From Holophagales bacterium (GTDB lineage Bacteria > Acidobacteriota > Thermoanaerobaculia > Multivoradales > UBA5704): a DNA stretch of 64,000 nt. Below are positions 16,731 to 51,882 of the stretch, piece by piece. How positions within the stretch are numbered: position 1 is the first letter of the stretch; every line of letters begins with the position of its first letter. The stretch lies in contig JANMTS010000168.1 of assembly GCA_031390755.1 (NCBI GenBank), positions 18,253-82,252 on the forward strand. The letters run 5' to 3'. A program made the translations under genes and the position numbers. Below the pieces are notes generated by a model. That model searched no databases and had not been told where the DNA came from. It was given only the letters and a program-made list of their open reading frames with translations.

Positions 16731-16737
16731 TCCGGCC

Positions 16738-31697: not shown

Positions 31698-31742
31698 CGG
31701 CGGTCTGCTAGAATCCCGGTCTCCTGAAGGAAGGCCGGGGTC

Positions 31743-32429
31743 CTGGACACGCAACGCAACGCCGAATCGCCGGAAGAGCTGGTCGCCGCCATTCTGTCGG
31801 GAGACCGGGCGGCCGAGGCGCGGCTGATCGAGACCTATGGCCGCGGCATCGCGATCCTGCTCGACCGCCAGACCAACGGCCGGCCCGAGGCCGAGGATCT
31901 GTTCCAGGACACCTTCCGGCTCGTGCTGGAGAAGCTGCGCAACGGGGAGCTGCGGGACCCGTCCCGCCTCCCCGGCTTCGTCGCCCAGATCGCCCGCAGC
32001 CTCGCGGTCGAGCACTACCGCAAGACCTCCCGCCGCAAGACCGAGGCCGACAGCGACGCCGTGCAGGAGGCGGTGGCCGGCGGCTCCGGCTAGCTCGACC
32101 GCCTGCTGGTGCGCGAACGGGCCGATCTGGTCCGCCAGGTCATCCAGGAGCTGGGCACCCCGCGCGACCGCGACATCCTGCTGCGCTTCTATATCGCCGA
32201 GGAGGACAAGGAGCGCATCTCGGCCGATTTCGGGCTGACGAGCCTGCAGTTCAACCGCGTCCTCCACCGTGCCCGGGAGCGCTACCGGGAGATCTATCTG
32301 GAGCGCGCGGGCCTGGAGCGTTCGGGAGGAGTGCCCGGCGAGGGCGGCCGGGTTGTCGCTCTTCTCGCGATCGCTGCGATATTCGCCGCTCTGGTCCCAC
32401 TCTCCTGGGTAAGACGGATCGCCGAGTGA
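31743..32429 (+). pseudogene. ECF-type sigma-70 factor interrupted by an in-frame TAG (32091-32093), with no canonical start
   Basis: Own translation: LDTQRNAESPEELVAAILSGDRAAEARLIETYGRGIAILL..EDLFQDTFRLVLEKL..FVAQIARSLAVEHYRK...GSG*LDRLLVRERADLVRQVIQELGTPRDRDILLRFYIAEEDKERISADFGLTSLQFNRVLHRARERY. The sigma2 and sigma4 regions lie in one frame, split by TAG. The frame opens at 31728 and only a CTG (31743) follows SD GAAGGAAGG. TGCTAGAAT, an extended -10-like element, is at 31706-31714. Confidence 0.6.
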
Positions 32430-36485: not shown

Positions 36486-36486
36486 G

Positions 36487-38406
36487 ATGAGAGCCACGAT
36501 GCGAGGTTTCCTGCTGGTCCTGCTGCTGGGCATCCCAGCGACCACCGCGATCACCGCCGCGCACGCCCAAGGCACGGCCGCCGAGGGCTGGGGCCGGTTC
36601 GACTACCGCAAGGCCGCGGATCAGAACCGTTATCTCGTGCGCGGCGCCGACGCCGTGCGCCCGGCCCGCAACATGGAGCCGGTCATGCAGCATCCGGACG
36701 AGGCGCAGGACGCCATCGACCGGCTGCAATCGAAAGGTTTCTGTGCCGAGGGGCTGGCGAAGTCCTGCCCCACCTGCAAGGTCGACCCGGCCAAGGAGAA
36801 GGGCTGCCGCCGGCCGAACTTCCTCGTCTTCATCGTCGACGACATGGGTTGGGGCGACTTCGGCGCGTTCGGCGGCGGCGAGGCCGTGGGCTCCGCGACG
36901 CCCATGGTGGACCGGCTCGCCCGCGAGGGGCTGCGGCTCACCTCGACCTACGCCCAGCCCACCTGCTCGCCGACGCGCGCCACGGTCCACACCGGCCAGC
37001 TGCCGGTGCATCACGGCGTCCTCTATCCGCCCATGTACGGCGATCCGGGCGGCCTCACCGAGCAGTCCATCACCCTCCCCTGGCTGCTCAAGCGCCAGGG
37101 CTACCGCACCCAGGGCGTGGGCAAGTGGCACATGGGCGAGAACGTGCCCAACCTGCCGCAGAACGTGGGCTATGACGACTACTACGGCTTCCTGAGCGTC
37201 TCCGACATGTACACGGAGTGGCGCGATCAGTACTACAACCCCGAGGTGGTCCGCGACGAGGTCCGCACCACCTACATGGACAACAACAAGTTCAGCCACT
37301 ACCTGATCCATGCCACGCCCAAGGACGGCTGCCAGGCGCTCGGCGAGATCACCCTCCCCTGGGAGGCCGAGAAGCTCCAGGGCGTGACCAACCGCGGCAA
37401 CGCCAACAACTGCACGCCGCAGAGCCCGAACAATCAGAAGGTCAGCTCGGGCGATCTCGACCAGCTCTGGGCCGCGTACTCGGAGAAGTTCATCCGCGAC
37501 CAGGTCGGCGCGAAGCAGCCGTGGTTCCTCTACCACGCCACCCGCGGCTGCCACTTCGACAACTACAACAACCTCGGCGACCGCCGGCTCTCCTACGCCC
37601 GCACGCTCTACTCCGACTGCACGGTCGAGATGGACGAGATCCTCGGCCGCCTCGTGCGCACGCTCCAGGAGACCGGCCAGGCGGAGAGCACGTTCGTCTT
37701 CTTCACCTCGGACAACGGCCCCGAGGACGAGATCCCGCCGCACGGCCACACCCCGTTCCGCGGCGGCAAGGGCGACACCTGGGAGGGCGGCGTCCGCGTC
37801 CCCGGCATCGCCTGGTGGCCCGGCGTCGTGCAGCCCGCCCGCACCTCGGACGGTCTTTTCGACCTGGCCGACCTCTACCCCACCGCCCTGGCGCTCGCCG
37901 GCTTCGACTACGCCCACCCGGCCGACCCGAAGCTCGCCTCGACGCTCAAGGACCGCTACCTCTACGGCGTGGATCAAACCTCGTTCCTGCTCTCGAAGGA
38001 CGGCGCCTCGAACCGCCGCAGCGTCCTCAACTGGTACCTCACGAACTTCGGCGCCGTGCGCATGGATGAGATGAAGGCCCACCGCATGGTGACGCTGCCG
38101 GTCGGTCTGGAGCAGGGCTACTTCGGCGGCCTGGCCGGCGTGAACCTGCCGGTCTCCTACCTCTGGATGTTCAACGTGCAATCCGATCCGAAGGAGACGG
38201 AGAACATCAACATCCGCCACCTCTGGGCGCAGCACCTCTTCAGCGGCGAGTTCACGCGCTTCATGTGCGATCTCGTCGCCTACCCGCCGAACCTGCCGAC
38301 GTCGCCCATGGACCAGCTGAAGGCGCAGTCGGAGATCCACCTTCTCAAGGAGCACCCGGAGAAGTGGAAGCAGGCGTGCGGAGGGAATGTGCAGAAGACG
38401 CTTTGA
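36487..38406 (+). CDS. Arylsulfatase (Cys-type sulfatase family)
   Basis: Signal peptide, DDMGWGDFG, formylglycine motif CSPTRATVHTG, GKWHMG. ATG 36487 lies 1 nt after the upstream TGA. Confidence 0.9.
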   Translation: MRATMRGFLLVLLLGIPATTAITAAHAQGTAAEGWGRFDYRKAADQNRYLVRGADAVRPARNMEPVMQHPDEAQDAIDRLQSKGFCAEGLAKSCPTCKVDPAKEKGCRRPNFLVFIVDDMGWGDFGAFGGGEAVGSATPMVDRLAREGLRLTSTYAQPTCSPTRATVHTGQLPVHHGVLYPPMYGDPGGLTEQSITLPWLLKRQGYRTQGVGKWHMGENVPNLPQNVGYDDYYGFLSVSDMYTEWRDQYYNPEVVRDEVRTTYMDNNKFSHYLIHATPKDGCQALGEITLPWEAEKLQGVTNRGNANNCTPQSPNNQKVSSGDLDQLWAAYSEKFIRDQVGAKQPWFLYHATRGCHFDNYNNLGDRRLSYARTLYSDCTVEMDEILGRLVRTLQETGQAESTFVFFTSDNGPEDEIPPHGHTPFRGGKGDTWEGGVRVPGIAWWPGVVQPARTSDGLFDLADLYPTALALAGFDYAHPADPKLASTLKDRYLYGVDQTSFLLSKDGASNRRSVLNWYLTNFGAVRMDEMKAHRMVTLPVGLEQGYFGGLAGVNLPVSYLWMFNVQSDPKETENINIRHLWAQHLFSGEFTRFMCDLVAYPPNLPTSPMDQLKAQSEIHLLKEHPEKWKQACGGNVQKTL

Positions 38407-38532
38407 TGCGCCCTTGAAACAGCCTGCCTCTGCGTAGCGGCGCCGCGCAGGGGCAGGCCTTGCCGTTACGCCGCCGCCCTCGTGCGAAAGGTAAGACAGC
38501 CGCCCCCGGCGGTCCCAGGTAGAATCACGGCC

Positions 38533-39909
38533 ATGAGATCTACCCTTTTCCTGCTTGCCGCCCTGATGCTTTCCGGTGCCGCCTCCGCCCAGGATCTCCC
38601 GCGAGCGTCCGCCATCGATCGCGAGATGGCGCGCATCGCGGGCGAGCGGTCGCTCTGGCCGGGGTTCGAGCCGATGTCGATTCCCCTGGCTGTCTTCGCG
38701 GGACAGAACACGTACCTCTTCCGGCACCCCGCTCCACCTGAGGGCTTTGCGCCGGTCGCCACCGCTCAGGGCATCCAGGGAGTCCAGGCTTTCGCGGGAC
38801 GCCATCCCGCGATCGTGGCCAACACGAGCACGGAGATCGGCGGCACGCTCACCGCGACGCTGTTGCTGGAGGGGCCGAGCGCCGCAATGACTCCGGTCGA
38901 CCTCGCCGCGGTTGCTCTTCATGAGGCGTTTCACGTCTTCCAGCACGGCCGGCATCCGAAGTGGGCGGGCAACGAGGGGGACATGCTGCTCTACCCCGTC
39001 GACGATGCCCGCCTGCTCGGTCTGCGGCGGCGGGAGTCGGAGGAGATCCGACGGGCTTCTGGCGCTTCGGACACGAAGGACGCGGCTTGCTGGGCATTTC
39101 AGGCGATGGGCCACCGGCGCGAGCGGTTCGGCGCGATGGAGGCGAAGTTCTCCGCCTACGAACGGATGACGGAGCTGAACGAGGGGCTGGCCGCCTATGT
39201 GCAGCAGACCGCCAGCGGAAAGACCTCGATCGACTTCCCCGACGGCGAGTTTCCGGCGGCGCAGATCCGGCAACGGGCGTACGTCGTCGGCTCGGCGATG
39301 GCTCTCGTCCTGGACCGTTTGCAGCCCGGCTGGCAGGCGGCTTTGGAATCCGGCTCGGTGGCCTATCTCGACGAGGCGTTGGAGGCTGCGGCCAAGGGGT
39401 TGGGGCCGTCCGCCTCGTGCTCGTTGACTCCGGACGAGGTCGCCGCCCTGGACTCCACGGCTCGCCAGGATACCGCGGTCGTGGCCGCAGGGCGCACGGA
39501 GCGCCGGAAGGCGTTCGAGGACCGTTCCGGTTGGCGCGTGGTCATCGTTCCGGCCGAGGGCCGTCCTCTGATGTTGAAAGGGTTCGATCCGCTGAACGTC
39601 CTGCGCGTCGAGGGCGGCCTGGTCCACACCCGGATGCTCAAGCTGGGGAACGACGACGGCGAGCTCGAGGGGATCGACGGCGACGGCGCCGACATCGAAG
39701 CGTTCACGGAGGGTGTCGGCGCGCATCCCCTGTTCGAAGGGGTCAAGAGGGTGGTCTTCTCGGGGCTCCCGCGGCCGGATGTCCGCAAGGACGGCAGAGA
39801 GGTCACCTTCCGGGCGCCGGGCCTGGAAGGCCACTTCAAGGACGCCACCTATTCGGTCGAAGGGTTCGAGCTGATCGTGAAGGTGGCGGCGCCGACCACG
39901 AATCCCTGA
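38533..39909 (+). CDS. Secreted hypothetical protein with HExxH motif (putative metallopeptidase)
   Basis: Signal MRSTLFLLAALMLSGAASA and LHEAFHVFQHG. TAGAAT lies 7 nt upstream of the ATG and there is no SD (possibly leaderless). Confidence 0.55.
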   Translation: MRSTLFLLAALMLSGAASAQDLPRASAIDREMARIAGERSLWPGFEPMSIPLAVFAGQNTYLFRHPAPPEGFAPVATAQGIQGVQAFAGRHPAIVANTSTEIGGTLTATLLLEGPSAAMTPVDLAAVALHEAFHVFQHGRHPKWAGNEGDMLLYPVDDARLLGLRRRESEEIRRASGASDTKDAACWAFQAMGHRRERFGAMEAKFSAYERMTELNEGLAAYVQQTASGKTSIDFPDGEFPAAQIRQRAYVVGSAMALVLDRLQPGWQAALESGSVAYLDEALEAAAKGLGPSASCSLTPDEVAALDSTARQDTAVVAAGRTERRKAFEDRSGWRVVIVPAEGRPLMLKGFDPLNVLRVEGGLVHTRMLKLGNDDGELEGIDGDGADIEAFTEGVGAHPLFEGVKRVVFSGLPRPDVRKDGREVTFRAPGLEGHFKDATYSVEGFELIVKVAAPTTNP

Positions 39910-39938: not shown

Positions 39939-42900
39939 TCAACCGCGCCAGGTTCCAGGCGGCGGGGGCAGCAGCTCCGCGTCGTCGGGCAGGCGCAGGG
40001 CGGCGAGGCCGTCCAGCTCTCCGGGATCGAAGCGGCAGAGCTGCACGGCGTGCCAGAAGCTGCCTCCTGCGAGACCTCCGAGCTTGTAGCGGCCCTCGGG
40101 CGTGAAGGCGGCCCAGCCGTCGGGCAGGAGTCCCAGCACCGCTACGCAGGAGCCGCGCTCCAGGTGCCAGAGGCGGACGGTGTTGTCGGCCGAGCCGCTG
40201 GCCAGCAGGGTGCCGTCCGGGCTGAAGGCCGCGCAGAGCACGGGGTGCGCGTGGCCGTCGAAACGCCGGGCCTCGACTCCCACGGTCAGATCCCAGAGAC
40301 GAACGGTGCCGTCCTGCGAGGCGCTCGCGATCCGGTTCCCGTCCGGATGGACGGCTACGCTCCAGACCTTGTCGCGGTGGCCCTCGAAGCGATGGCTGCG
40401 ATGGGCGCGCTGGCCTCCGTCCAGGTTCCAGACGAGGACGGTATGGTCCGCCGAGCCCGCGACGAGGCCGCGGCCGTCGGGCAGGAAGGCCAGGGAGAGC
40501 AGGTTGCTTTCGTGCCCCTGAAGCTTGCTCTTCTCCCGCCCGCTGCGGGGATCCCAGAGGCGCAGCACCGGGTCGGAGCTGGCGGCGGCGAGAAGGCGGC
40601 CGTCCGGGCTGAAGGCCACGGAGCGGACGCCGCTGCCGAAGCCGTCCAGGACCCGGAGGCGCCGGCCGCTCGCGGCGCTCCAGAGCTGGACGGTCCGGTC
40701 CCGGGAGCCCGAGGCCAGCGTCTCGCCGTTGGGATGGAACGCCACGGAGAGGACTTCGGCGCCGTGGCCTTCGAGACGATGGCGCAGCTTCGGCTCGGGC
40801 GTATCGAGCCCGGACCAGAGATGGACGGAGCCGTCGGCCGAGGCGGCGGCCAACGACTTGCCGTCGACGCTGACCGCGACGCTCCAGACCTTGTCCCTCG
40901 CCTCGTCCCTGGCCTCCTCCAGACGGAGGCTCTCCCGGCCGGTCCGCAGATCCCAAAGGCGGACGGTGCCGTCGTGGGCGCCGGTGGCGAGCAGGTTATC
41001 TCCGGAATACGCCAATCCAGACACCGCGTGCATCGGTTTCGGCGAGCGCCGCAGCTCCCGGCCCGTAGCCGCGTCCCAGATGCGCAGGGTCCGGTCCGTC
41101 GAGGCGCTCGCCAGCATCGACGAGCTGAACGCGACGCCGCGGACTCCAGCCGCGTGGCCGAGCAGCCGGTGGCGCACGCGGCCCGTGGCCACGTCCCACA
41201 GCCGGACCATGCGGTCCTCCGAAGCGCTCGCCAGGATCTCGCCGCCGGCTCCGAACGCCAGGCTGGTGACCACGTCGTCGTGCTCCAGCCGGTGCAGCTC
41301 GCGGCCGGTCTCCGAGTCCCAGATGCGCACGGTGCGGTCCTCGGAGCCGCTGGCGAGCAGGCTCCCCTCGCCGCCGAACGCGATCGTCCTCACCCAGTCC
41401 AGATGGCCGGTCAGATGGAGGATCTCGTCGCCTCGCGCAGTGTCCCCGACATTCCCGATATCCCACGCGCGCACGGCACGGTCCGAGGAGCCCGCGGCGA
41501 GGCGCCAGCCGTGCTCGTCGAAGGCCACGGTCAGGACCCAGCCGCCGGCCCGGAAGCGGTGCGTCTCCAGGCCGCTGTCCAGATCCCAGACGCGCGCGGT
41601 CTTGTCGTACGAGCCGCTCGCCAGGGTGCCGCCCTTGGGGTGGAACGCCAAACTCGACACCCAGCTCTGGTGGCCCCAGAGGCGCTTGGTCTCCCTCCCG
41701 GCGGCGGCGTCCCACAGGCGGACGGTGCGGTCCTCGGAGCCGCTGGCAAGCAGGCCGCCGGGACCGAACGCGAGGGCCAGCACCCGGCCGTCATGGCCGA
41801 GGAGCCGGCGAACTTCGAGAAGGGTGCCGGCGTCCCAGAGACGGATCATCGACCCTTCGGCGGTGGCGAGGAGCTGGCCGTCGAGGCTCCAGGCCACGGC
41901 GTTCTGCGGCTGGCAGGAGGCGACCCAGGCCTCGATCGTGTCCGGCAGGGTCAGGACGGCGCCTTCCAGGTCGCAGCCGGCCAGGCTTTCTTCGTCGAGA
42001 CGGGCGCCGGCCAGCTTGGCCCGCCGGAACCGCGCTCCGTCCAGCCGGGCGCCCCGGAGATCGGCGGCATGGAGCCGGGCGCCGGAGAGATCCGCGCCGC
42101 GCAGGTCGGCGCCGGTCAAGATTGCGCGGCTGAGATCGGCCCCCGCGAGCCGGGCCTTCTCCAGGCGGGCGCCGGTCAGCCGCGCGGAGGTCAACCGCAC
42201 GTCCCGCAGGTCGGCACCGGTGAGGTCGGCGCCGGTGAGATCCTGGCCGGCGAGATCCTGGCCGCGCAGATCCCGGCCCGCCAGGATCACCGGCTCGCGC
42301 ACCTCTTCTCCCAGGTGGCGCAGCAGCAAGAGGGCGTTGCCCTTGGCCGCGTCGCCGCCGGTGCCGAGCAGGGTGTCGCGCGCCCAGCCCGCCACGGCGT
42401 CGCGGCCGGCGAGGTCGACCAGGAAGCGCGCCATCAGCGGCGTGGCGAGGCGCACGGCCAGCACCTCGGGCGAGCTTTCGAAGGCGAGGTCGTCGGCCGC
42501 CCGCTTGGCGACCAGCCACTCGAGGATCGAGGGGTGGACGAAGGCGAAGGCGTCCTCGGCGTCGCGCACCAGCAGCGTGCCGGAGCCCACCTGGAAGGCC
42601 GCGGTCTCCGGGTCGACCGGCGTGCGGCGCATGCCGGCCACGGAGCGGGCGACCTCCTCGGTGAGGTCGGTCAGGTGGAGCGAGCTCTCGTCCGCCCGCC
42701 ACAGGCGCACCGCGATGCGGGTCGAGGCCTCCAGCCGCTCGCTGAACGAGAGGCTCGGCGCCTCGCCGTCGCCGCTCTCGGCGCGGGAGATCTCCTGGCC
42801 GAGCCAGCGGTTCAGCAGCAGGCGGTAGACCTCGGCCGCGGTGACGCCGCCGCCGGCCGCCTCGGCCTGGCGCAGGCGCTCTTCCGGGATGTCCGCGATG

Positions 42901-45113
42901 AAGCTCAGCATGCGCGGGTTGTGCGCCATGCCCAGCAGGTCGCCGACCTGCGACAGGAGATCGAAGCGCTCGCCGGCCAGCGCCTCGTCGCCCAGCCGGC
43001 GGACCAGGAAGGCGCGGATCTGCTCCTGCGTGAACGGCTGGAGGAGCGTCACCCGGCGGCTGGACAGGCGCTCGACCTGCTCGCCGAGCAGGGTGTGGAC
43101 GCGGGTCTCGGACTCGAAGTGCTCGCGGCGGCTGGAGACGACGACTTTCGCTTCTCCGGACGCGGCTTCGAGCAGCGCCGCGAAGTGCTCCAGGGCGCGG
43201 CCGTAGGTGACGCGCGTGGCGAGCTCGTCGAAGCCGTCGATGAGGAGCGCGATGCGGCCCTGCTCCAGCATGTAGCGGAAGCGGCCGGGCGAGAAGCCGT
43301 CCATGGACTCGCCGGTGAAGTGCTGGGAGAGGAGCTGATCGAGCGAGCGCCCCTTCTCCAGCTTGCGCATCTCGACGAGCACCGGCACGAGGCCGCCGCT
43401 CTCGCCCAGGCGCTGGGCCAGCTTGCGCAGCAGGAACGACTTGCCGGTGCCCGACTCGCCCAGCACGAGGACGAACCGGCCGCGCGGCGACGCCAGCCAG
43501 CCGAGGATGGTGTCGAGCGCGTCGGCGGTCAGCTCCTCGCGGCCTCCGGACCGGGACCGCATGCGCTGCGGCACGTAGAGGTCGGGCGGATAGACCGCAT
43601 CGTTCTGGATGCGCAGCGTCTGGCGGTCGACGTAGGAGCGGAAGTCGATGAGCCCCTGGAATTCGACAAAGCTCTGGAGATGGACGCGGCGCTCCGCGGC
43701 CTCGCGCACCAGATCCTCGGGCGCCGAGGCGCCGCCGTAGACCAGCTTGGAGATCAGGCCGCTGTCCGCCGCGCGGTAGCGGGCGTCGATGCGCTGGAGG
43801 AACGTCTCCAGCCCCTCGCGGGTGACGCCGTGCTCCAGCGCGCCCACGGGATAGACCCGCACCAGCCCCTCGTGCTCGGGCACGGTGACCCGCAGGTACT
43901 CGACCGGCGGCCAGCCCTCGCGGATGCGGCGGATCTCGGTGCCGGGCCGCTCGCGCAGCCGGCAGGCGGTCTCCAGGCGGGCGAGAAGATCGTCGTCGCG
44001 ATCGTCCCGGTCATTGCGCTCGTCCCGGTCATTGCGCTCGTCCCGATCATTGCGGCCGTCGCCCGCCGCCTCTCCAGACTCGACGGGAGCGTCCATCGGC
44101 GCGAACGGCCCTGCGGGCTCCTCCGGCATGCCGGACAGGGTGATCTTCTCCACCAGCTCCGGAGAGCCGTCCGGCCCGACGCGCTCGGCGCCGGCCCCCG
44201 GATCCACTGCGTAGATACGCTGGCGCACCCGGATGCGGTGCCGCTCCACCTGGACGACCTGGTAGCGATGGCTCCCCTCGCCGGCGCCGTCCTCCCGCGC
44301 CGGGCTGCCCGTGGCGAGGACGACCGCGCCGCCGGGCGACAGCCACTGGAGGCCGGGGTCCTGGGCGTGGCCGTGCAGCACCAGGTGGACGCGGTCGCCG
44401 AGCCGCCGGCGGAAGTCCTCCGCGTCGCGCAGACGGTCGGTCTCCCGGGTCGCAGCTCCGCCCCCAAGACTGTGATGGACCGCGGCGAGCAGCAGCCAGC
44501 CCTCGCGCCGGAACGGCTCCAGGGCGTCGTGGAACCAGCGCAGCTGCTCGTCGCCCACCAGGCCGTAGTGGCTGTCCGGGCGGTGGCTCTCCGCCAGGGT
44601 CGAGTCGAGCGCCGCCACCACCACCCGCAGGCGCGGGAAGGGAAACAGCGACCACGGCAGCAGCTCGCTGAACACGGCCGGGGTCTCGCCGTAGAAGTCG
44701 CGCCAGGCCGAGGCGAACAGCCGCCACTTGGGCCGGAACGGCGGCTCGGGCTCGCGCTCCTCGGCCAGGCAGTCGCTGAAGTAGGCGAGGCAGGCTTCGC
44801 GGCTGATGTCCCGGTCGCCGGGCAGCAGGACGACCCGCTCCCGGGGGAGCCGCAGGCTCTCGGTGAGCAGGCCGAGGAAGCGCACGCCCTGGCGCAGCTC
44901 GGACGGCAGCCCCTCTTCCGCGAGATCGCCGGTGACCACGATCAGGTCCGGCGACTCGGCCCCCTGCCCCATCCGGACGAGATCGCCGACGATCAGCGCG
45001 GCCAGCTCCTTGGCCGGGTCGGCGGTCGAGAGCGGATCGGCGCCGGTCCGCCGGCCGAAGCGGAGGTCCGACAGATGCAGGACGGTGAGCAGGCGGTCGA
45101 CCGCCCCGGTCAT
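39939..45113 (-). CDS. Giant STAND protein A: divergent metallophosphoesterase, Mrr-like module, NACHT-type NTPase, pentapeptide repeats, 14 WD40 (1724 aa)
   Basis: C-terminal 1724 codons of ORF 39939..47918. Start is ATG 45113, or GTG 45122 overlapping the gene B stop as GTGA. MPE motifs HLSDLRFG, TGDLAEEG, LPGDRD, AAVHH, LHGHA. Walker A GESGTGKS (43437-43460). Walker B LLIDGFDEL (43221-43247). About 20 A(D/R)LxG pentapeptides (41964-42275). 14 xRxW(D/S/N/H) WD40 units. Tail GWAAFTPEGRY..FWHAVQLCRFDPGELD. Confidence 0.9.
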   Translation of the reverse strand: MTGAVDRLLTVLHLSDLRFGRRTGADPLSTADPAKELAALIVGDLVRMGQGAESPDLIVVTGDLAEEGLPSELRQGVRFLGLLTESLRLPRERVVLLPGDRDISREACLAYFSDCLAEEREPEPPFRPKWRLFASAWRDFYGETPAVFSELLPWSLFPFPRLRVVVAALDSTLAESHRPDSHYGLVGDEQLRWFHDALEPFRREGWLLLAAVHHSLGGGAATRETDRLRDAEDFRRRLGDRVHLVLHGHAQDPGLQWLSPGGAVVLATGSPAREDGAGEGSHRYQVVQVERHRIRVRQRIYAVDPGAGAERVGPDGSPELVEKITLSGMPEEPAGPFAPMDAPVESGEAAGDGRNDRDERNDRDERNDRDDRDDDLLARLETACRLRERPGTEIRRIREGWPPVEYLRVTVPEHEGLVRVYPVGALEHGVTREGLETFLQRIDARYRAADSGLISKLVYGGASAPEDLVREAAERRVHLQSFVEFQGLIDFRSYVDRQTLRIQNDAVYPPDLYVPQRMRSRSGGREELTADALDTILGWLASPRGRFVLVLGESGTGKSFLLRKLAQRLGESGGLVPVLVEMRKLEKGRSLDQLLSQHFTGESMDGFSPGRFRYMLEQGRIALLIDGFDELATRVTYGRALEHFAALLEAASGEAKVVVSSRREHFESETRVHTLLGEQVERLSSRRVTLLQPFTQEQIRAFLVRRLGDEALAGERFDLLSQVGDLLGMAHNPRMLSFIADIPEERLRQAEAAGGGVTAAEVYRLLLNRWLGQEISRAESGDGEAPSLSFSERLEASTRIAVRLWRADESSLHLTDLTEEVARSVAGMRRTPVDPETAAFQVGSGTLLVRDAEDAFAFVHPSILEWLVAKRAADDLAFESSPEVLAVRLATPLMARFLVDLAGRDAVAGWARDTLLGTGGDAAKGNALLLLRHLGEEVREPVILAGRDLRGQDLAGQDLTGADLTGADLRDVRLTSARLTGARLEKARLAGADLSRAILTGADLRGADLSGARLHAADLRGARLDGARFRRAKLAGARLDEESLAGCDLEGAVLTLPDTIEAWVASCQPQNAVAWSLDGQLLATAEGSMIRLWDAGTLLEVRRLLGHDGRVLALAFGPGGLLASGSEDRTVRLWDAAAGRETKRLWGHQSWVSSLAFHPKGGTLASGSYDKTARVWDLDSGLETHRFRAGGWVLTVAFDEHGWRLAAGSSDRAVRAWDIGNVGDTARGDEILHLTGHLDWVRTIAFGGEGSLLASGSEDRTVRIWDSETGRELHRLEHDDVVTSLAFGAGGEILASASEDRMVRLWDVATGRVRHRLLGHAAGVRGVAFSSSMLASASTDRTLRIWDAATGRELRRSPKPMHAVSGLAYSGDNLLATGAHDGTVRLWDLRTGRESLRLEEARDEARDKVWSVAVSVDGKSLAAASADGSVHLWSGLDTPEPKLRHRLEGHGAEVLSVAFHPNGETLASGSRDRTVQLWSAASGRRLRVLDGFGSGVRSVAFSPDGRLLAAASSDPVLRLWDPRSGREKSKLQGHESNLLSLAFLPDGRGLVAGSADHTVLVWNLDGGQRAHRSHRFEGHRDKVWSVAVHPDGNRIASASQDGTVRLWDLTVGVEARRFDGHAHPVLCAAFSPDGTLLASGSADNTVRLWHLERGSCVAVLGLLPDGWAAFTPEGRYKLGGLAGGSFWHAVQLCRFDPGELDGLAALRLPDDAELLPPPPGTWRG
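43995..44060 (-). repeat. 18-nt tandem repeat x3 in the gene A linker (encodes NDRDERNDRDERNDRD)
   Basis: GTCCCGGTCATTGCGCTC at 44004-44021 and 44022-44039, with a degenerate third unit at 44040-44057. Confidence 0.8.
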
Positions 45114-45118
45114 TCCGG

Positions 45119-48100
45119 TCACGAAGAGACTCCCGCCGCGGGCTCTCGCGGCTCTCTCGGCTCTCTCCTCGGGGGGGGGGCCTGCTCGAAGAGCGGCTCG
45201 GTGGTCAGGAGAAGCCGCGGCATGAAGGATTCGACGTCGTTCAGCTCGAAGCGGCAGAGGCCGATCACGTGCCAGAAGCCGCTCAGCTTGACCCCGCGGA
45301 AGCGGCCGTCGGGCCGGTAGGCCACCCAGCCCTCGCGGAGAGGAGACAGGATGGCGAGGCACTCCCAGGTCTGGGTGTCCCAGAGGCGGATCGTGTTGTC
45401 GTCCGAGCCGCTGGCGAGCACGTTGCGGTCCGGGCTGAAGACCAGATCGCGCACGGCGGCGATGTGGCCGGCCAGGACGACGGTCCTCGGCGAGCCTTCC
45501 GACCTCCAGATGCGGATGCAGCCGTCCTCGCCGCCGACGAGCAGCTCCCGGCCGTCGGGACTGAAGGTCAGGGCCACCGGCCCGCGGGGGCCCGGGAGCC
45601 GGGCCAGCTCGCGGCCGGTCTCGAGGTTCCAGAGGCGGACCGAGCGGTCCAGGGAGGCGCTCGCCAGCCGCTTGCCGTCCGGCGAGAAGCCGACGACCAC
45701 GGCCGGCGCCTCCAGGGCCGGGAAGTTGCGCAGCTCGCGGCCGGTCTCGACGCTCCAGACGCGGACGGAGCGGTCGAACGACGCGCTCGCGAGGCGCTTG
45801 CCATCGGCCGAGAAAGCGACGTGCGCGACCGCGTCGCGATGACCCGGCATGGTGAGCGGCGGCGCGCCCGAGCGGACCTGCCAGAGCCGGACCAGGCGGT
45901 CCGACGAGCCGCTGGCGAGAAGCAGGCCGTCCGGGCTGAAGGCCACGCTGCGGATGTCTCCCCGCTGATCTTCCCAGGAGCGGATCTGGTTGCGGTTCTC
46001 CACGTCCCAGAGCCGGACGCTCCTGTCCTGGGCGCCGGTCGCGAGGCTCGCGCCGTCGGGCGAGAGGGCCACGGCCAGGCCGCGCCCCTGCCTCTGAAGA
46101 TAGGCGTCGAGCTCCGGCCGTGCCCTCGACGGGCGTTGCCACATGCTGTCCGCGCCCGGCCGCTGCAACACCGCGGTGCCGACGCCGAGATCCCAGACGC
46201 GCAGCGTGTCGTCCTCCAGAAGGCCTTGAAGCAGGCCGTCGCGCAGGAACGACAGCCGGCGGACGCCGCCGCGGAAGCCGGTGAGGCTGCGCTCCTGCTG
46301 GCCGCCGGACCAGATGCGCACGGTGCGGTCGTCCGAGCCGGAGACCAGGCCGCGGCCGTCCGGCCGGAAGGCGACCGCGCGCACGGCCAGCTCGTGGCCG
46401 GCCAGGCGGAACACCTCGCGCCGGGACGCCAGATCCCAGATGAGGATGGTGCCGTCGTCGACGGCGAGCGCAATCTGGCGCTCCTCCGGGCCGAAGGCCA
46501 GGGCCAGGGCGGCGCCTTCGAGCTGGATCAGGCACCACTCGGTCTTCTCGCCGCGGCGCCAGATCCGCACCAGGCGCTCCTCGCCGCCCGCGGCGAAGTA
46601 CCCGCCCTCCGGGCTGAACCCGAGACACCAGGGGGTGCCGACGTTGCGCAGGGCCTGCATCTCGTTGCCGTTCGAGGGGTTCCAGAAGCGGATCGTCCGG
46701 TCTTCGGAGGCGGTGACGAGGACGCCGTCCGGGCTGAAGGTGACGCCGCGGACCGCGCCTTCGTGGCCGGCGAGCCGGGCGATCTCGTGGCCGCTGCGCG
46801 CATCCCAGACCGCGGCCGAGCCGTCCGCCGCGCCGCTGGCCAGGAGCTTGCCGTCGCGGCTGAGGGCGATCCCGAAGACCGCGCCGTTGTGGGGGCCGGC
46901 GCGGAAGATCTCCTCCCCGGTGGCCAGGTCCCAGGCGAGCGCGAAGCCGTCCTCGGACCCGGCGAAGAGCGCGGTGCCGTTGGCGTTGAAGGCGAGGCAC
47001 CGCACGCGGTCGCGGGGGCCGAGCAGGCGCCGGATCGGCCGCCACGTCTGAGTGTCCCAGAGATCGACTGCGTTGCCCGCCGCCGCCGCGATGAGCTCGC
47101 CCGACGGAGGGCTCCAGGCCACGGCCAGGGCGGGCAGGGACGTCCCGGCCGCGGCCGCGACGACCGGCGGCAGGGCGAGCGCCGCGCCGTAGGTCTCGCA
47201 GTCCTGGAGGGCGGTGGCCTCCCAGGTGGCGCCGATCAGGCTGGCGCGGCGCAGCACCGCGCCGGTGAGCTTCGCGCCGCGCAGGTCCGCGTTGAACAGG
47301 CGGGCGCCGGTCAAGTCGGCGCGGCTCAGGTCGGCGCCGTCCAGGCGGGCGCGGCTCAGGTTGGCGCGCACCAGCCGGGCGCCGCTCATCTGCGCGCGGG
47401 TGAGGATGGTGCCGGTCAGGCGGGCCGTGGAGAGGTCGGACTCGGTGAAGTCGGCCCGCGTCAGATCCTGCTCGGAGAAGTCGCGGCCCTGGAGATCCTG
47501 GCCGGCCATGCGGCGCTGGCGCCCGGCCTCCTCGGGGAAGAGGTCGAGCAGGCGCTGGGCCTTCTCGCTGATCGCGGGCCGCGGATCGTTGAGCGCCTGG
47601 TGCGCCCAGCGCACCGCTTCTTTCTTGCCGGCGAGCGCGGCGAAGAAGCCGAGCATGACGTCCGACGCCGCGCCGCGCGCCAGCACCTCGGGAGCCTTCC
47701 CCTCCCTCAGCTCCTCGGCGGCGCGGCGGGCCACGAGCCAGTCGAGGATGGAGGGGTGGATGAACGAGAAGTTGCCGTCCTCGTCGCGCACCAGGAGCGT
47801 GCCGGAGCCGACCTGGAAGGCGGCGGTGTCGCGGTCGCGGTCGGTGAGCGTGCGCAGGATCTGCGCGACCTCCTCGGTCAGCTCCTTGAGGTTGATCGCC
47901 TGGTCGGGCTCGCGCCACATGCGGATGGCGACGTCCTCGACCGCCTGCCAGCGCTGGTCGATCGACAGGCCCGGCCGCGCGCCCTTGGGGTTGGCGCGCT
48001 CGGTTTCGAGCCCGAGCCAGCGCTGCACGAGCATCTGGTAGACGGCGGGGACGGAGATCTCGCGGTTGCCCTCGCCCGCGGCGTCGCGTAGTTGCTCCTC

Positions 48101-50311
48101 GCGCAGGTCGGCGATGAAGCTCAGCAGGCGCGGGTTGACGGCGAGGCCGGTGACGCGCACCTCCTCGAGCAGCTTCAGGCGGCGCTCGGCCTCTTCTTTA
48201 CTGCCGAGCCGGCGCTCCAGGAACGCGGAGATCTGGCCGGTGTCGAAGAGCTGGAGCATGGCCACGCGCCGGCCCGAGACGTTCTCCACCTGCTCGCCCA
48301 TGTCGGTGAGCAGGTCGCGGTCGGTGATGAAGTGCTGGCGCCGGCTGGTGACCACGACCTTCGCCGAGCCGACCGCGGCCTGCAGCAAGGTCGAGAGGTG
48401 ATCGGCCGCGCGCTCGTAGGTGACGAGCGTGGCGAGCTCGTCGAAGCCGTCGAAGAGCAGCGCCACCCGGCCGCGCTCCAGGAGATAGCGGAAGCGGAGA
48501 GGCGAGAAGTCGGCGCCCTCCTGGCCGAAGTGCTGGCCGAGCAGCTCTTCGAGCGAGCGGCTCTTGTTGAGCGTGCGCATCTCGATGAGCAGCGGCGTGA
48601 CGTCGCTCTCCGCGCCGATCCGCCGGGCCAGCTCGCGCAGCAGGAAGCTCTTGCCCGTGCCCGAGTCGCCGAGCACGAGGATGAAGCGCCCCTGCTCGGA
48701 CTGGGTGAGCCAGCTCTGGATGAGGGTGAGCGCGTTGGGCGTCTCCCGGTTGTCCCCGCCTTCGAGCAGCATCATGCGCTGCGGCACGTACATCTGCGAG
48801 GGATAGAGCGCATCGTCGGCCAGGCGCTGGGCCTGCCGGTCGAGCAGCGGCCGGAAGTCGATGAGCTGCTCCAGCTCGGCCAGCCGCACCAGGCGGACGC
48901 GCTGCGCCCGGGCGTCCCGCAGCACCCGCGCAGGCACCGGGCCGTTGCCGGTGTAGACGAGCCTGGAGATGACGCCGCTGTCTTCGTCCTGATAGCGGGA
49001 GTGAACCCCTTCGACGAAAGCCGCCAGGTCTTCCTGGGTCACGGTCCGATCGACCGCGCCGACCGGCGACGAGCGCGGGATGCCGCCCTCGCGGACGGTG
49101 ATCTGCAGATACTCCAGGGCCGGGCGCGGTATCCGCTTGCGCTCGATCTCGGCCTGCGGCTCGCGCAGCCGCCAGATGCGGGCCACGCGCGCCAGCAGGT
49201 CGTCCCGCTCGGCGAGAGCCTTGTCTTCGGCGCGTCCGGCCTCCGCCGCGGATACCACGGATCCAGCCACGGCCTCGGCCGTCCGCCGGAACGTCGCCTC
49301 CGCCTGGCGCATGCGGACGGCGATCTCGCCGGTGCCGCGGGCGTCCTCGTGCCACAGCGCGCGCTTCGGCTCGTACACCCGGGTCCAGCGCCGGATGCGG
49401 TCCTCGAAGATCTGCAGCACCTGGCAGCGGTTGACCGTCTCGCCGGACGCCCCGGACGCCCCGGACGCCCCGGTCACGCCGGTCTCCGGCGTGCCCGCGG
49501 CGAAGCACGGCAGCTCCGGGGTCAGCCAGATGTCGCCGCTGCCGTGCGAGTGTCCATGCAGCACGAGGCTGGTCTGCGGCGCCAGGTTGACGAGCAGGCC
49601 GGCGGTGTCGTCGAGGCGCTCTTCGGGCCGGGTGGGGACGCCGCGCGGGTCGTGGTGGAGGGCGGCGATGCGCAGCCATTCGCCATGGCGGGCCAGCTCC
49701 AGCTCGCCCGTGAACCAGCGGATCTGCTCCGCTCCCAGCGAGCCGCGGTGGATCTCATGGCTCTCGGCCTGGGTCGAGTTCAGGCCGGCGACCGTGACCC
49801 GCAGGTCCGGGATCTCGAAGAGGGTCCAGGGATGGTGCTCGTTGAACACCGCGCCGGGATGGTCCTTGTAGAGATCGCGGAAGAAGGCGGAGAAGAAACG
49901 CCACTTCGGCCAGTAGGGGGCGACGGGCTCGCGCTCCTCGGCGCGGCAGGTGCTGAAGTAGGCCGCGCAGGCGTCGCGGCTCACGTCCCGGTTGCCCGGC
50001 ACCACGACGACGCGGTGGCGGCCGATCCCCAGCCCCTGGGCCAGGCTCTCCACGAACCGGAGCACGTCGCGGAACTCGGACGGCCGCGCGCCCTCGGTGA
50101 GGTCGCCGGTGAGCAGCAGGATGTCGGGAGAGACGAGGGCGCCGTTCTCGTCGCGCAGACGGCCGAGGTCGGCGAGCACGACCGCGGTCAGCGTCTCGAA
50201 GGTGTCGTCGACCTGGGGCGGCGCAAGGCTGCCAAAGCGATGCTCCCAGCCGAAACGAAGATCCGAAAGGTGGACGATCGTGACCGCCCGCCCAGTCTCG
50301 CGCGCGCCCAA
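45119..50311 (-). CDS. Giant STAND protein B: paralogue of A with the same five-module order (1730 aa)
   Basis: From ORF 45119..50467. Likely TTG start at 50311, 8 nt after GAGGAGGAG. MPE motifs HLSDLRFG (50252-50272), TGDLTEG, PGNRD (GNRD 49985-49996), ALHHD, LHGHSHG. Walker A GDSGTGKS (48647-48670). Walker B LLFDGFDEL. Pentapeptide run 47200-47509. 14 WD40 units. Tail GWVAYRPDGRF..FWHVIGLCRFE. Confidence 0.9.
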   Translation of the reverse strand: MGARETGRAVTIVHLSDLRFGWEHRFGSLAPPQVDDTFETLTAVVLADLGRLRDENGALVSPDILLLTGDLTEGARPSEFRDVLRFVESLAQGLGIGRHRVVVVPGNRDVSRDACAAYFSTCRAEEREPVAPYWPKWRFFSAFFRDLYKDHPGAVFNEHHPWTLFEIPDLRVTVAGLNSTQAESHEIHRGSLGAEQIRWFTGELELARHGEWLRIAALHHDPRGVPTRPEERLDDTAGLLVNLAPQTSLVLHGHSHGSGDIWLTPELPCFAAGTPETGVTGASGASGASGETVNRCQVLQIFEDRIRRWTRVYEPKRALWHEDARGTGEIAVRMRQAEATFRRTAEAVAGSVVSAAEAGRAEDKALAERDDLLARVARIWRLREPQAEIERKRIPRPALEYLQITVREGGIPRSSPVGAVDRTVTQEDLAAFVEGVHSRYQDEDSGVISRLVYTGNGPVPARVLRDARAQRVRLVRLAELEQLIDFRPLLDRQAQRLADDALYPSQMYVPQRMMLLEGGDNRETPNALTLIQSWLTQSEQGRFILVLGDSGTGKSFLLRELARRIGAESDVTPLLIEMRTLNKSRSLEELLGQHFGQEGADFSPLRFRYLLERGRVALLFDGFDELATLVTYERAADHLSTLLQAAVGSAKVVVTSRRQHFITDRDLLTDMGEQVENVSGRRVAMLQLFDTGQISAFLERRLGSKEEAERRLKLLEEVRVTGLAVNPRLLSFIADLREEQLRDAAGEGNREISVPAVYQMLVQRWLGLETERANPKGARPGLSIDQRWQAVEDVAIRMWREPDQAINLKELTEEVAQILRTLTDRDRDTAAFQVGSGTLLVRDEDGNFSFIHPSILDWLVARRAAEELREGKAPEVLARGAASDVMLGFFAALAGKKEAVRWAHQALNDPRPAISEKAQRLLDLFPEEAGRQRRMAGQDLQGRDFSEQDLTRADFTESDLSTARLTGTILTRAQMSGARLVRANLSRARLDGADLSRADLTGARLFNADLRGAKLTGAVLRRASLIGATWEATALQDCETYGAALALPPVVAAAAGTSLPALAVAWSPPSGELIAAAAGNAVDLWDTQTWRPIRRLLGPRDRVRCLAFNANGTALFAGSEDGFALAWDLATGEEIFRAGPHNGAVFGIALSRDGKLLASGAADGSAAVWDARSGHEIARLAGHEGAVRGVTFSPDGVLVTASEDRTIRFWNPSNGNEMQALRNVGTPWCLGFSPEGGYFAAGGEERLVRIWRRGEKTEWCLIQLEGAALALAFGPEERQIALAVDDGTILIWDLASRREVFRLAGHELAVRAVAFRPDGRGLVSGSDDRTVRIWSGGQQERSLTGFRGGVRRLSFLRDGLLQGLLEDDTLRVWDLGVGTAVLQRPGADSMWQRPSRARPELDAYLQRQGRGLAVALSPDGASLATGAQDRSVRLWDVENRNQIRSWEDQRGDIRSVAFSPDGLLLASGSSDRLVRLWQVRSGAPPLTMPGHRDAVAHVAFSADGKRLASASFDRSVRVWSVETGRELRNFPALEAPAVVVGFSPDGKRLASASLDRSVRLWNLETGRELARLPGPRGPVALTFSPDGRELLVGGEDGCIRIWRSEGSPRTVVLAGHIAAVRDLVFSPDRNVLASGSDDNTIRLWDTQTWECLAILSPLREGWVAYRPDGRFRGVKLSGFWHVIGLCRFELNDVESFMPRLLLTTEPLFEQAPPPRREPREPREPAAGVSS
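45171..45180 (-). repeat. G10/C10 homopolymer in the last 20 codons of gene B
   Basis: Plus strand ctcctc-GGGGGGGGGG-cctgctc. On the coding strand it reads GCC CCC CCC CCG (APPP). Confidence 0.95.
49445..49471 (-). repeat. 9-nt tandem repeat x3 in the gene B linker (encodes GASGASGAS)
   Basis: GGACGCCCC x3 read directly. It occupies the same linker position as the repeat in gene A. Confidence 0.8.
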
Positions 50312-50638: not shown

Positions 50639-51139
50639 TTGACTCAGGTGGCCAGCGTGGAAGTGCTGCTTGACGGCGGCACTCAGATGTCCGGACCGCT
50701 CAACACCTTGAAACAATTGCTGGCGGCGGTGCTGACGGGAGACCTTTCCCCCGGCTCCCACGCGGAGCGCTTGACGTTTGACCAGGACGGCACCGAGGTG
50801 GAGGCTCTGGAGCTCCCCGACGGCTTCAGATCTACGGTTGCCTGGCTCGCGGACCTGTGTGCCGCCTGGCACGAGACCTCCGAGGAGGTCGGCGATGGAG
50901 ATCCGGCTCGAATCCGCGGAATCGTCCTCCTGGACGAGATCGACCTCCACCTGCACCCCAGTCTGCAACGCTCTCTGGTGCCGCGGCTCCGCGCGGCTCT
51001 TCCCCAGGTGCAGTTCTTCGTCACGACCTTCCCTCTCACTGGAAGAACCCTGATGTCCGCGGCGCGCACTATTCCTTTCACGGCAGGGTCTGTGCCTACT
51101 GTCAATGTGCATTGCCGGCCAACGACCCCGGCGACGTAG
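50639..51139 (+). pseudogene. C-terminal fragment of an AAA_21/ABC-type ATPase (PtuA-like); the N-terminal P-loop half is missing
   Basis: GIVLLDEIDLHLHPSLQRSLVPRLRAALPQVQFFVTT is the Walker B/D-loop...TTHSP region of PtuA/GajA-type ATPases. No Walker A lies upstream: the frame is closed by TGA at 50564-50566. The expected HSP after VTT is absent and the tail looks non-native. Confidence 0.6.
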
Positions 51140-51882
51140 AGCACTTTCGCCCGAAAGCCATCTGCTGGTGGATGGCCTATGAGCTCGAGAACTACCTCCT
51201 GAGCTGTAGTCTCTGCAACAGGGTCTACAAGAAGGAGCTCTTTCCACTGCCGGACGGCGCGGCCCACTGCACGTACGAGAACCGGCAGGATCTCGACCGG
51301 CAGACGTTCCTGCTGCTCGATCCCGTCGGCGACCCGGTCGAGGACTGGTTGTTCTTCGATTTCGAGGATCCGATCTGCCCGGTCGTCGCGGCGGCCGGAG
51401 TGCCTGACGATCACCGGCTCCGTGTCGACACGACCATCTCGTTCTTCGGCCTCAACAAGCATGTCCGCCGTCAGCGGAGCCGGTACGAGACCGTAACCAA
51501 GGCGATGGAGCTGCTGAAGGCGGTTAAGACCGGGAGCGAGGACAAGAAAGCCGACCTGCAGAGGATGGCCAGCCGCTTCGAGCCTTTTGGTATTGCGGTT
51601 CGCCAGATGCTCTCCAGGCGCGCTCCTGATCTTCTCCCCGGACCCGAAGAGGAGGTTCTTGGGCTGCTGGCGGACATCTTCCTCGACCTGCGGGAGGCGA
51701 ACACGAAGCTCCAGGAAGATCCGAATAATCGGGAAAACCGACGGCTCCGTGACGAGAGCTATTGGGCCTTGGCGGTCCTATGGCGACACCCTCCGCCGCC
51801 GGTCTCCCCTGATCTCATTGAAGCTTGCCTTGACACCGAAGGAACGAAAGACGCTGTAAGCCGGTATTACGCTCAACTCTGA
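51025..51882 (+). pseudogene. HNH-nuclease-like protein (PtuB / TIGR02646-like) lacking its own start codon
   Basis: In the frame of ORF 50857..51882: CAYCQ..(13)..EHFRPK..(20)..CSLCNRVYK is the HNH pattern of the ATPase-associated TIGR02646 family. The only in-frame start (50857) lies deep inside the ATPase fragment. Confidence 0.55.

Follow-up and report, generated by a model that had tools for sequence, protein, structure and literature searches.

The 64,000-nt stretch of DNA analyzed here (the window; contig JANMTS010000168.1, assembly GCA_031390755.1, of a Holophagales bacterium from the phylum Acidobacteriota) carries two adjacent minus-strand genes that encode giant NACHT-type NTPases of the same layout. 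The upstream gene, B (B-type; 45119..50311, 1730 aa), and the downstream gene, A (A-type; 39939..45113, 1724 aa), occur together and in this order in Acidobacteriota, and their phylogeny indicates that they are inherited as a unit. This ancient co-inherited tandem unit is the most interesting point of the analysis, and it lay beyond the reach of a first reading made from the sequence alone (the sequence-only reading). What is new here is the fixed, co-diverging pair of B followed by A, and not the architecture of its proteins. We lean towards the view that B and A constitute a co-operating two-gene operon of the bacterial NACHT family (bNACHT), the products of which would form a hetero-oligomeric pair with pseudo-enzyme N-termini and would probably serve in defense.

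Organization and inheritance of the gene pair

Both open reading frames (ORFs) are intact over their whole length. The end-to-end alignment of their products (43% identity, 1069 bits) confirms the sequence-only reading, which had described two neighboring, co-linear paralogues on the minus strand. The domain order is common to A and B: a metallophosphoesterase (MPE) fold, an NA-iREase3 module, a NACHT NTPase, pentapeptide repeats, 14 WD40 blades and a C-terminal tail. The tripartite layout of N-terminal modules, switch and repeat sensor that had been proposed is thus upheld. The start codon of gene B is a TTG at position 50311, 9 nt past the Shine-Dalgarno sequence GAGGAGGA. At the junction of the two genes (45111..45122, minus strand) the TGA stop codon of gene B occupies 45121-45119 and the ATG of gene A follows 5 nt later at 45113. 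An alternative in-frame GTG for gene A at 45122 overlaps the gene B stop as GTGA. Both of these arrangements are seen at the junction, as had been stated, and the operon-like pairing of the genes also stands. Scans for promoters and terminators at both ends of the operon, in GC-rich DNA, detected nothing, and no tRNA genes that could mark an integration site were found.

Both genes recur, in unchanged order, in the Acidobacteriota contig JBEQUE010000118 (locus L001), which belongs to a metagenome-assembled genome (MAG). The product of its first gene (1768-6867) shares 71% identity with B and 43% with A, and the product of the second (6864-11873) shares 69% with A and 41% with B. A B-type gene followed on the same strand by an A-type gene was recorded in the window, L001, L003, L005, L007, L008, L087, L089 and L090, although the upstream gene of L090 runs off the end of the contig and its type is unassignable. 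These nine independent pair loci all come from Acidobacteriota; L003 and L005 are metagenome contigs, L007 is a Thermoanaerobaculia MAG, L008 is a Holophagales MAG, and L087, L089 and L090 are further contigs. Every A-type gene examined has a family paralogue directly upstream (9/9 loci), and no lone A-type gene was found. The 75 other family loci contain a single gene, with the exception of four unrelated local duplications (L033, L063, L073 and L077). The gap between B and A was read in six loci (window, L001, L003, L005, L007 and L008); it ranges from -4 to +14 nt, one of the junctions overlapping, and gaps of 14 nt or less are compatible with translational coupling.

A neighbor-joining tree with 200 bootstraps was calculated from the region spanning the inactive restriction endonuclease (iREase) module, the NACHT domain and the winged-helix domain (WHD) of these six pairs. 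The B-types were monophyletic in 200/200 replicates, the A-types in 200/200, and A and B together in 187/200. The A and B halves of the tree show mirrored branching, with the groupings (window, L001), (L003, L008) and (L005, L007). The two clades and their mirrored branching indicate a single old duplication, after which the pair appears to have been inherited vertically as a unit. At about 70% amino acid identity and with the 72% GC content of the source genome, synonymous sites are saturated.

The two members have diverged asymmetrically. In 15 orthologue comparisons, the mean identity of the MPE domain is 64% for B and 51% for A, with A higher in 0/15. For the iREase module the values are 58% for B and 70% for A (A higher in 13/15), and for the first propeller they are 52% and 59% (A higher in 14/15). 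The NACHT cores are equally conserved among A and B orthologues, at 72-73%. B has thus the better-kept MPE domain, and A has the better-kept iREase module and first propeller. The MPE is the least conserved globular domain among A-type orthologues, and the iREase, with the NACHT domain, is among the best conserved. A conserved third gene that might supply a missing effector was sought by all-against-all BLASTP of the immediate neighbors of seven pair loci (L007 is without an entry), and no matches were obtained.

N-terminal modules

The MPE-fold domain lies at 49307..50290 (minus strand, about aa 8-335) in B and at 44214..45092 (minus strand, about aa 8-300) in A. It matches the Pfam family Metallophos with 33.4 bits in B and 25.7 bits in A, above the gathering cut-off (GA) of 21.5. 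The nearest solved structure to the B domain by sequence is Rv0805 (E=4e-5), a class III cyclic-nucleotide phosphodiesterase. An AlphaFold2 model of the N-terminal 500 residues of B has a mean predicted local distance difference test (pLDDT) value of 81.9. In a Foldseek search, the first domain of this model matched Rv0805 with a template modeling (TM) score of 0.77 and an E value of about 1e-12; further matches are GpdQ, YydB, purple acid phosphatases, Mre11 and Vps29. The second domain gave weak matches to MspJI, AspBHI and EndoMS (E 0.009-0.12). The predicted model together with Foldseek confirms the MPE fold and the restriction endonuclease (REase) fold.

The states of the MPE site were read from an alignment of the N-terminal domain across the family, that is from sequence and not from a structure with metals. 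The motifs D-x-Q / GD / GNHD / HH / GH-x-H are invariant in 59/59 single-gene relatives, counted as cluster representatives. In the window, B has SDLRFG / GD / GNRD / HH / GHSH, with D-x-R in place of D-x-Q, and A has SDLRFG / GD / GDRD / HH / GHAQ, again with D-x-R and with the metal-ligand Asn and two His residues gone. The B-type orthologues carry Arg in motif I in 8/8 cases; their motif III is GNRD in 5/8, GNHD in 2/8 and GNQD in 1/8, and the second His of motif V is H in 2/8, W in 5/8 and P in 1/8. Among A-type orthologues motif III is GDRD, GSRD or GLRD, motif V is decayed or deleted, and motif I is wholly missing in some. Neither A nor B shows the canonical motifs of active enzymes (D-x-H / GD / GNH(D/E) / H / GH-x-H).

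Invariant site residues are lost in both copies, and the MPE of the pair is therefore probably no longer a canonical two-metal hydrolase. Judged by these motifs, the A-type domain is certainly no canonical two-metal enzyme, and the B-type domain probably is not one either. That the MPE of A is catalytically dead is very probable; the same is rather likely of the MPE of B. The calcineurin-like metallophosphoesterase that had been read at the N-terminus is confirmed as a fold and as a Pfam match, but its role as an enzymatic effector is doubtful in the pair because both copies are without the residues that are invariant in the 59 single-gene relatives.

The Gln in motif I of these relatives (59/59 cluster representatives; P0010, P0012, P0013 and others) is itself unusual in comparison with the canonical D-x-H. 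It suggests that the D-x-Q relatives make up a distinct, uncharacterized calcineurin-like subfamily attached to NACHT proteins.

The module directly preceding the NACHT domain matches Pfam PF22739 (NA-iREase3, named NACHT-associated inactive REase; GA 27 bits) with 95.7 bits in B (48854..49207, minus strand, aa 369-486) and with 116.8 bits in A (43641..43994, minus strand, aa 374-491). The predicted secondary structure of the B module is alpha-beta-beta-beta-alpha-beta. An alignment read by eye shows the conserved strands EYLRV / YPVGA / ISxLVY and no D...(D/E)xK. The module is accordingly assigned to the restriction-endonuclease fold of the inactive NA-iREase3 type. It had been described as a Mrr-like module of about 130 aa; the REase fold is borne out, but the PD-(D/E)xK residues are missing and the type is the inactive one.

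Short tandem repeats are present in both genes. In A, an 18-nt repeat (3.2 copies, 43998-44054) encodes NDRDER in the linker between the MPE and iREase modules. In B, a 9-nt repeat (3.4 copies, 49443-49473) encodes GAS and corresponds to a low-confidence loop within the phosphoesterase fold (residues 276-289, pLDDT <50). The tandem-repeat low-complexity linker ascribed to both proteins thus exists in A, but the repeat of B lies inside the MPE fold and not in a linker. A further repeat, REP x3, is found at the C-terminus of B (45141-45167). Like the NDRDER x3 of A, it is in-frame and missing from the orthologues, and both appear to be recent low-complexity expansions.

NTPase and repeat regions

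The NACHT NTPase with its helical and winged-helix segments lies at 47516..48688 in B (minus strand, aa 542-932; GDSGTGKS, LLFDGFDEL, FSFIHPS) and at 42294..43478 in A (minus strand, aa 546-940; GESGTGKS, LLIDGFDEL, FAFVHPS). Pfam NACHT (PF05729, GA 26.7) is matched with 48.9 bits by B and with 46.1 bits by A, and A also matches Pfam nSTAND1 with 41.9 bits. The best solved relative of the profile of the iREase-NACHT-WHD region is PDB 5IRL/5IRM (E=8.7e-8), which we take to be rabbit NOD2. In A1, an alignment of 10 family sequences, the 5IRL match covers positions 169-414 (the NTPase core and the beginning of the helical extension) and ends before H492. Invariant in A1 are G191/G193/K194, D261-E265 and the winged-helix H492 of F(V/I)HPS. 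In both proteins Walker A fits GxxxxGK[ST], and DGFDE agrees with the form of Walker B, D[GAS]hDE, by which Kibby et al. define the NACHT clade. Neither partner has lost Walker A or Walker B at any of the pair loci. By these profiles and motifs the NTPase is a genuine NACHT/STAND protein, and each of A and B is predicted to hold a complete STAND switch with Walker A, the DGFDE Walker B and the ADP-holding winged-helix His. The assignment of the P-loop NTPase and its NACHT-like segments made before any database search thus survives profile comparison, with scores above the Pfam cut-off. All of the motifs quoted for it were found again: GESGTGKS/GDSGTGKS, LLIDGFDEL/LLFDGFDEL, NPR(M/L)LSFIAD and F(V/I)HPSIL(E/D)WLVA.

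The sensor region follows at 45377..47515 in B (minus strand; pentapeptide repeats aa 933-1050, 14 WD40 blades aa 1055-1645) and at 40164..42293 in A (minus strand; pentapeptide repeats aa 941-1060, 14 WD40 blades aa 1061-1650). Pfam Pentapeptide scores 77 bits in B and 91 bits in A, and Pfam WD40 scores 10 and 12 stretches, respectively. Read blade by blade, each protein has 14 blades and a partial closing segment. The pentapeptide part comprises about 21 units (about 105-110 aa) in each protein, and the corresponding DNA of B gives a tandem-repeat signal. These counts agree with the earlier estimate of about 20 pentapeptide repeats and 14 blades. The sensor appears Apaf-1-like, with a predicted pentapeptide beta-helix and two 7-bladed WD40 propellers. 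The C-terminal tail of A (39942..40163, minus strand) reads GWAAFTPEGRYKLGG...FWHAVQLCRFDPGEL, and its equivalent in B lies at 45122-45376 on the same strand. The tail GW.AF.PDGRYK.GG...FWH..GLCRFEPGEL is conserved in 12/12 aligned paired proteins and in other family members, in keeping with the conserved ending GW.A(F/Y).P(E/D)GR...FWH...LCRF noticed at first reading. The strict pattern is matched by 26/125 long family proteins.

Family membership

The architecture of A and B is already cataloged and experimentally uncharacterized. Supplementary Table S1 of Kibby et al. lists it in NACHT clade 11, with the module order calcineurin-like, iREase, NACHT, pentapeptide and beta-propeller, alongside variants that bear an additional TIR_2, Trypsin or VWA domain at the N-terminus. 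In the same work, calcineurin-like phosphoesterases are counted among the bNACHT effectors, and pentapeptide repeats and beta-propellers among the sensors. The sequence-only reading had not recognized the five-module order as that of a characterized system; the order is in fact a listed one, it includes a named Pfam family of NACHT-associated inactive REases, and it occurs in a large protein family. Both proteins show the Pfam domain order of clade 11, and we assign them to that clade as defined by Kibby et al., by architecture and not by placement in a tree. Membership of A and B in the bNACHT family at large is highly probable. The 27 bNACHTs tested so far carry, according to the domain list in Fig. 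S3 of Kibby et al., only LRR, HEAT, REase, TIR, TM, NNH1 and NCH1; calcineurin-like, pentapeptide and propeller domains are present in 0/27.

An exhaustive HMMER search with residues 1-940 of B returned 4864 cluster representatives at E<=1e-3 and 668 at E<=1e-30, and most of the top 150 matches span the phosphoesterase, iREase and NACHT modules. This search overturned an earlier impression, gained from 32 matches in a word-indexed protein search, that the family is rare. Among species-representative genomes, members were found in Sorangium, Polyangium, Archangium and Cystobacter (Myxococcota), in many Actinomycetota, in Acidobacteriota and Planctomycetota, and in others. Some relatives have N-terminal extensions with trypsin-like peptidase or TIR domains, additions that are typical of effector shuffling in conflict systems.

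Carriage of the family by plasmids or phages was considered and rejected. The sole family-level match is an 11.85-Mb Nonomuraea record in a plasmid collection; five cyanobacterial plasmid records match the NACHT region only, at about 25% identity, and one phage record matches the phosphoesterase region only, at 25.5% identity. In the single-copy relative P0010 (L002, 10001-15045, on a 5.66-Mb contig), a separate 199-aa WD40 ORF lies 24 nt downstream, and the propeller region of this protein may have been split by a frameshift or a stop codon.

Genomic context

Directly upstream of gene B lies a remnant of a Septu system (50639..51882, plus strand). It consists of a PtuA fragment (50639-51139, 166 aa), which covers profile positions of about 236-329 of 451 (9e-24) and has no Walker A motif, and of an overlapping PtuB-like HNH ORF (50857-51882, 1.5e-27). 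The GC content of the remnant is lower, at 0.60-0.64. The remnant does not belong to the pair but furnishes its defense-gene setting. A complete Septu system with full PtuA and PtuB is not present, as PtuA is partial. The decayed ATPase and HNH locus reported next to the pair is thus real, and it can now be named. The idea that the pair had been inserted into ptuA was discarded, the ORF on the far side of the pair (38482-39909) being without PtuA, PADLOC or Pfam match. This ORF (plus strand, 475 aa, convergent with A) has a signal-like hydrophobic N-terminus and the motif HEAFH (HExxH), and looks like a secreted HExxH protein. It has no match in Pfam, NCBIfam or PADLOC and no homologue beside the other pairs.

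Genes related to conflict also adjoin pairs elsewhere. The neighbor at 645-2021 (minus strand) in L089 matches models of pAgo-associated SIR2-PNTD (5.6e-15), that at 1929-2150 (plus strand) in L087 is a HicA toxin, that at 16559-16789 (minus strand) in L003 is a FitA-like ribbon-helix-helix antitoxin, and a neighbor in L005 is a weak MADS mad1-like helix-turn-helix protein. The window holds mostly ordinary genes, such as those for a sigma-54 activator, Ser/Thr kinases, peptidases, MltA, PLD, a multihaem cytochrome and a sulfatase. Comparison of the flanks with those of the other pair loci yielded only noise-level tblastx matches. A housekeeping aminotransferase of the window is 86% identical to that of the L001-bearing MAG, compared with 69-71% for the pair, and 85% identical to that of a Thermoanaerobaculia MAG, which points to a Thermoanaerobaculia-like chromosome. 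The pair can be regarded as an accessory module that is modestly associated with genes of defense and of mobile elements. The proposed defense association is retained for the Septu remnant next to B and some conflict-related neighbors, but it is modest, and several loci lie among ordinary genes.

Sulfatase genes are found within a few kb of the pair in 3/9 loci, in differing positions and orientations (window 36403-38406, plus strand; L003 18937-20316; L007 907-3102 and 3350-5584), and the single-gene relatives P0029 and P0030 contain an FGE-sulfatase-type domain. This recurrence may be due to chance if these genomes are rich in sulfatases. Elsewhere in the window, a 1090-aa TPR-CHAT (caspase-like) protein is encoded at 27967-31239 (plus strand); CHAT-TPR proteins are counted among the components of conflict systems. 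It is followed by two short ORFs (31728-32429, plus strand), of which the first matches Sigma70_r2 and the second (32094-32429) has no Pfam match, and which could be a split sigma factor of the extracytoplasmic function type. The ORF at 34380-36485 (plus strand, 701 aa) encodes multihaem cytochrome c motifs and a C-terminal TPR and overlaps the start of the sulfatase ORF.

Discussion

The domain layout, the assignment to the family, the site motifs, the operon and its joint inheritance are shown by the data, whereas the defense role, heteromer formation and the loss of catalysis are inferred. We propose that the repeat region of the proteins would bind a ligand, most likely a protein derived from or altered by a phage or another invader. 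Ligand binding would release the ADP-locked autoinhibition through the conserved winged-helix His, and the NACHT modules would then oligomerize and cluster the N-terminal modules of the MPE fold and the inactive REase fold. In the single-gene relatives the clustered module would presumably act as effector, as an active phosphodiesterase similar to Rv0805. In the pair, A and B would co-assemble as sensor and partner, as NAIP/NLRC4 or the paired NLRs of plants do, and the pseudo-enzyme MPE and iREase modules would serve as binding or assembly surfaces. Co-inheritance, gaps of 14 nt or less and asymmetric divergence make a hetero-oligomeric sensor/partner pair the most likely arrangement. A role in conflict or defense is, by analogy, reasonably probable. 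The functional interdependence of A and B is put forward tentatively, at slightly under even weight. A further-reaching version, in which A and B are an obligate, co-evolving hetero-oligomeric NACHT pair, the ancestral phosphoesterase is a pseudo-enzyme in both, labor is divided so that B retains the MPE surface and A the iREase module and first propeller, and signaling takes place by assembly or binding, would make the pair the first recognizable bacterial counterpart of paired NLRs; it is possible, if on the unlikely side.

The pair shares with bNACHT clade 11 the module order, the DGFDE motif, the inactive REase before the NACHT domain, the sensor of pentapeptide repeats and propellers, the relatives with TIR, trypsin or VWA N-termini, and the occurrence in bacteria with complex lifestyles. 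The cataloged examples, however, are listed as single proteins, mainly from Actinobacteria, whereas the present pair is a fixed operon of B followed by A, is restricted in our sample to Acidobacteriota, and has lost the family-invariant phosphoesterase residues in both members. With NAIP/NLRC4, RRS1/RPS4 and RGA5/RGA4 it has in common that linked NLR paralogues are asymmetrically diverged and that one has a more degenerate signaling N-terminus. Linkage and co-evolution are both seen here, with nine loci, a fixed order and mirrored trees for six pairs. Plant NLR pairs are head-to-head, while B and A form a co-directional operon, no integrated decoy is evident in them, and both P-loops are intact. 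The likeness is one of functional analogy only and not of membership.

Apaf-1-like WD40 STANDs in prokaryotic defense (PMC13581612) also have a STAND NTPase followed by two WD40 propellers, presumably as a ligand clamp. Apaf-1 itself differs in its AP-ATPase (NB-ARC), its 7+8 blades and its CARD adaptor; A and B have a NACHT domain, 7+7 blades after a pentapeptide beta-helix, and MPE and iREase modules at the N-terminus. Among the class III phosphodiesterases Rv0805, Icc and CpdA, Rv0805 is the best match of the N-terminal domain in sequence and fold, and the GNRD of LpxH resembles motif III of B. All of these enzymes have D-x-H in motif I, whereas the pair has D-x-R and the active-looking relatives have D-x-Q; A is also without the Asn and the last His, and the orthologues vary at these positions. 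The tripartite order of effector, STAND switch and repeat sensor, and presumed direct binding of an invader protein, are shared with Avs/AVAST, which differ in belonging to another STAND clade, in TPR-like sensors for terminase or portal, in being single-gene systems, and in having active nuclease or other effectors. The Avs/bNACHT logic suggested by the sequence-only reading can be kept for its tripartite NACHT/STAND layout, but no Avs model was matched in PADLOC, the sensor here consists of pentapeptide repeats and WD40 blades, and the N-terminal enzyme is questionable.

A number of observations weigh against the preferred reading of a co-operating, probably defensive pair. The motif argument rests on sequence alignment. 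B of the window retains 6/7 of the usual metal ligands, and the pyrophosphatase LpxH is active with the same GNRD motif, which is why B may still be catalytic. The overall identity of the B-type MPE (64%) is as high as that of the other domains of B, and this domain is therefore under selection for something. Co-inheritance and an operon are no proof of physical interaction, and since neither protein has a damaged NTPase motif or an incomplete sensor, each could work alone. A and B might then be two independent receptors, self-sufficient tandem duplicates with different ligands, of which B, and perhaps A, would be a non-canonical active phosphoesterase, such as a GNRD enzyme of the LpxH kind that breaks down a nucleotide or nucleotide signal. 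Walker A and B, the winged-helix His and the 14-blade sensors are complete in both proteins, the ligands D, GD, N, HH and GH-H are intact in B, and the WD40 regions of A and B are just 38-43% identical, so that their specificities probably differ. Occasional independent tandem copies exist elsewhere (L033, L063, L073 and L077), and bNACHTs are nearly always single-gene systems (Kibby et al.). Independent receptors would be expected to be lost or shuffled, however, and the order of B and A is fixed and co-inherited in 9/9 loci, with mirrored phylogeny and gaps of at most 14 nt, one of them an overlap, in the six pairs. Where the relatives are invariant, B orthologues vary freely (R/Q/H; H/W/P), and this speaks against a conserved catalytic function; the site of the A-types is clearly disrupted, with truncation in some orthologues. 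We regard two independent receptors as unlikely.

The defense role faces objections of its own. PADLOC gave no real match to A or B, and the matches to NCBIfam and PADLOC models (DS-9 phosphoesterase and the EruA and HyoA NACHT antiphage models) are sub-threshold, with 42 bits for NCBIfam EruA against a cut-off of 1000 and 22 for HyoA against 1200. Within the literature collection searched, nothing relevant turned up on EruA/HyoA or on STANDs that occur in pairs or in tandem in bacteria. The defense role is argued by analogy with characterized STAND and NLR proteins. The pairs of L001, L005 and L007 and the single-copy P0010 locus lie amid ordinary metabolic or regulatory genes. The pair might instead take part in endogenous signaling or regulation, as an AfsR-type STAND switch for stress, development, envelope or nutrients, the repeats of which bind a host partner. 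The mostly ordinary neighbors (those of the window, two-component systems in L005, glycosyltransferases in L001), the sulfatase genes near the pair in three loci and the want of an above-threshold PADLOC match would fit such a role, with the catalytic sites decayed, the obvious candidate for a 'killing' effector is gone, and non-immune NLR-like regulators are documented in bacteria. Yet the proteins of the pair show neither a DNA-binding domain nor any other output domain of the kind that regulators usually carry, and close relatives have TIR or trypsin-like N-termini and FGE-sulfatase-type sensors, as is typical of conflict systems. The neighborhoods are not conserved at all, as would be seen with accessory genes, and defense or toxin-antitoxin genes adjoin 4/9 pairs. 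The pair also has a patchy distribution among genomes, and its proteins (69-71% identical) have diverged faster between two genomes than a housekeeping protein has between those two (86%). Endogenous regulation appears quite unlikely on this evidence. Lastly, the loss of invariant phosphoesterase residues in both copies, the decay of the adjoining Septu locus and the low-complexity repeat insertions could be taken to mean that A and B are decaying, non-functional duplicates of a once-active single gene. This is very improbable: the window holds two uninterrupted ORFs of about 1725 codons, the counterparts of which occur in 8 further loci, no NTPase motif and none of the 14 blades has been lost, and the orthologue identity of 50-73% per globular domain is consistent with purifying selection.

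To our knowledge, NLR pairing, as in NAIP/NLRC4 and in the sensor/helper systems of plants, has been described in eukaryotes alone, and the NLR-like proteins of bacteria are seen as sensors encoded by one gene, to which an enzymatic effector is attached. If A and B were two independent receptors, they would be merely two more members of a large cataloged bNACHT clade. If they are an obligate hetero-oligomeric pair, sensor/partner pairing of NLRs would have arisen independently in bacteria. A co-inherited bacterial NACHT pair with decayed sites would offer a tractable prokaryotic model for the division of sensing and signaling among NLRs, and it would raise the question of what output such a system has once both of its N-terminal 'enzymes' have become pseudo-enzymes.

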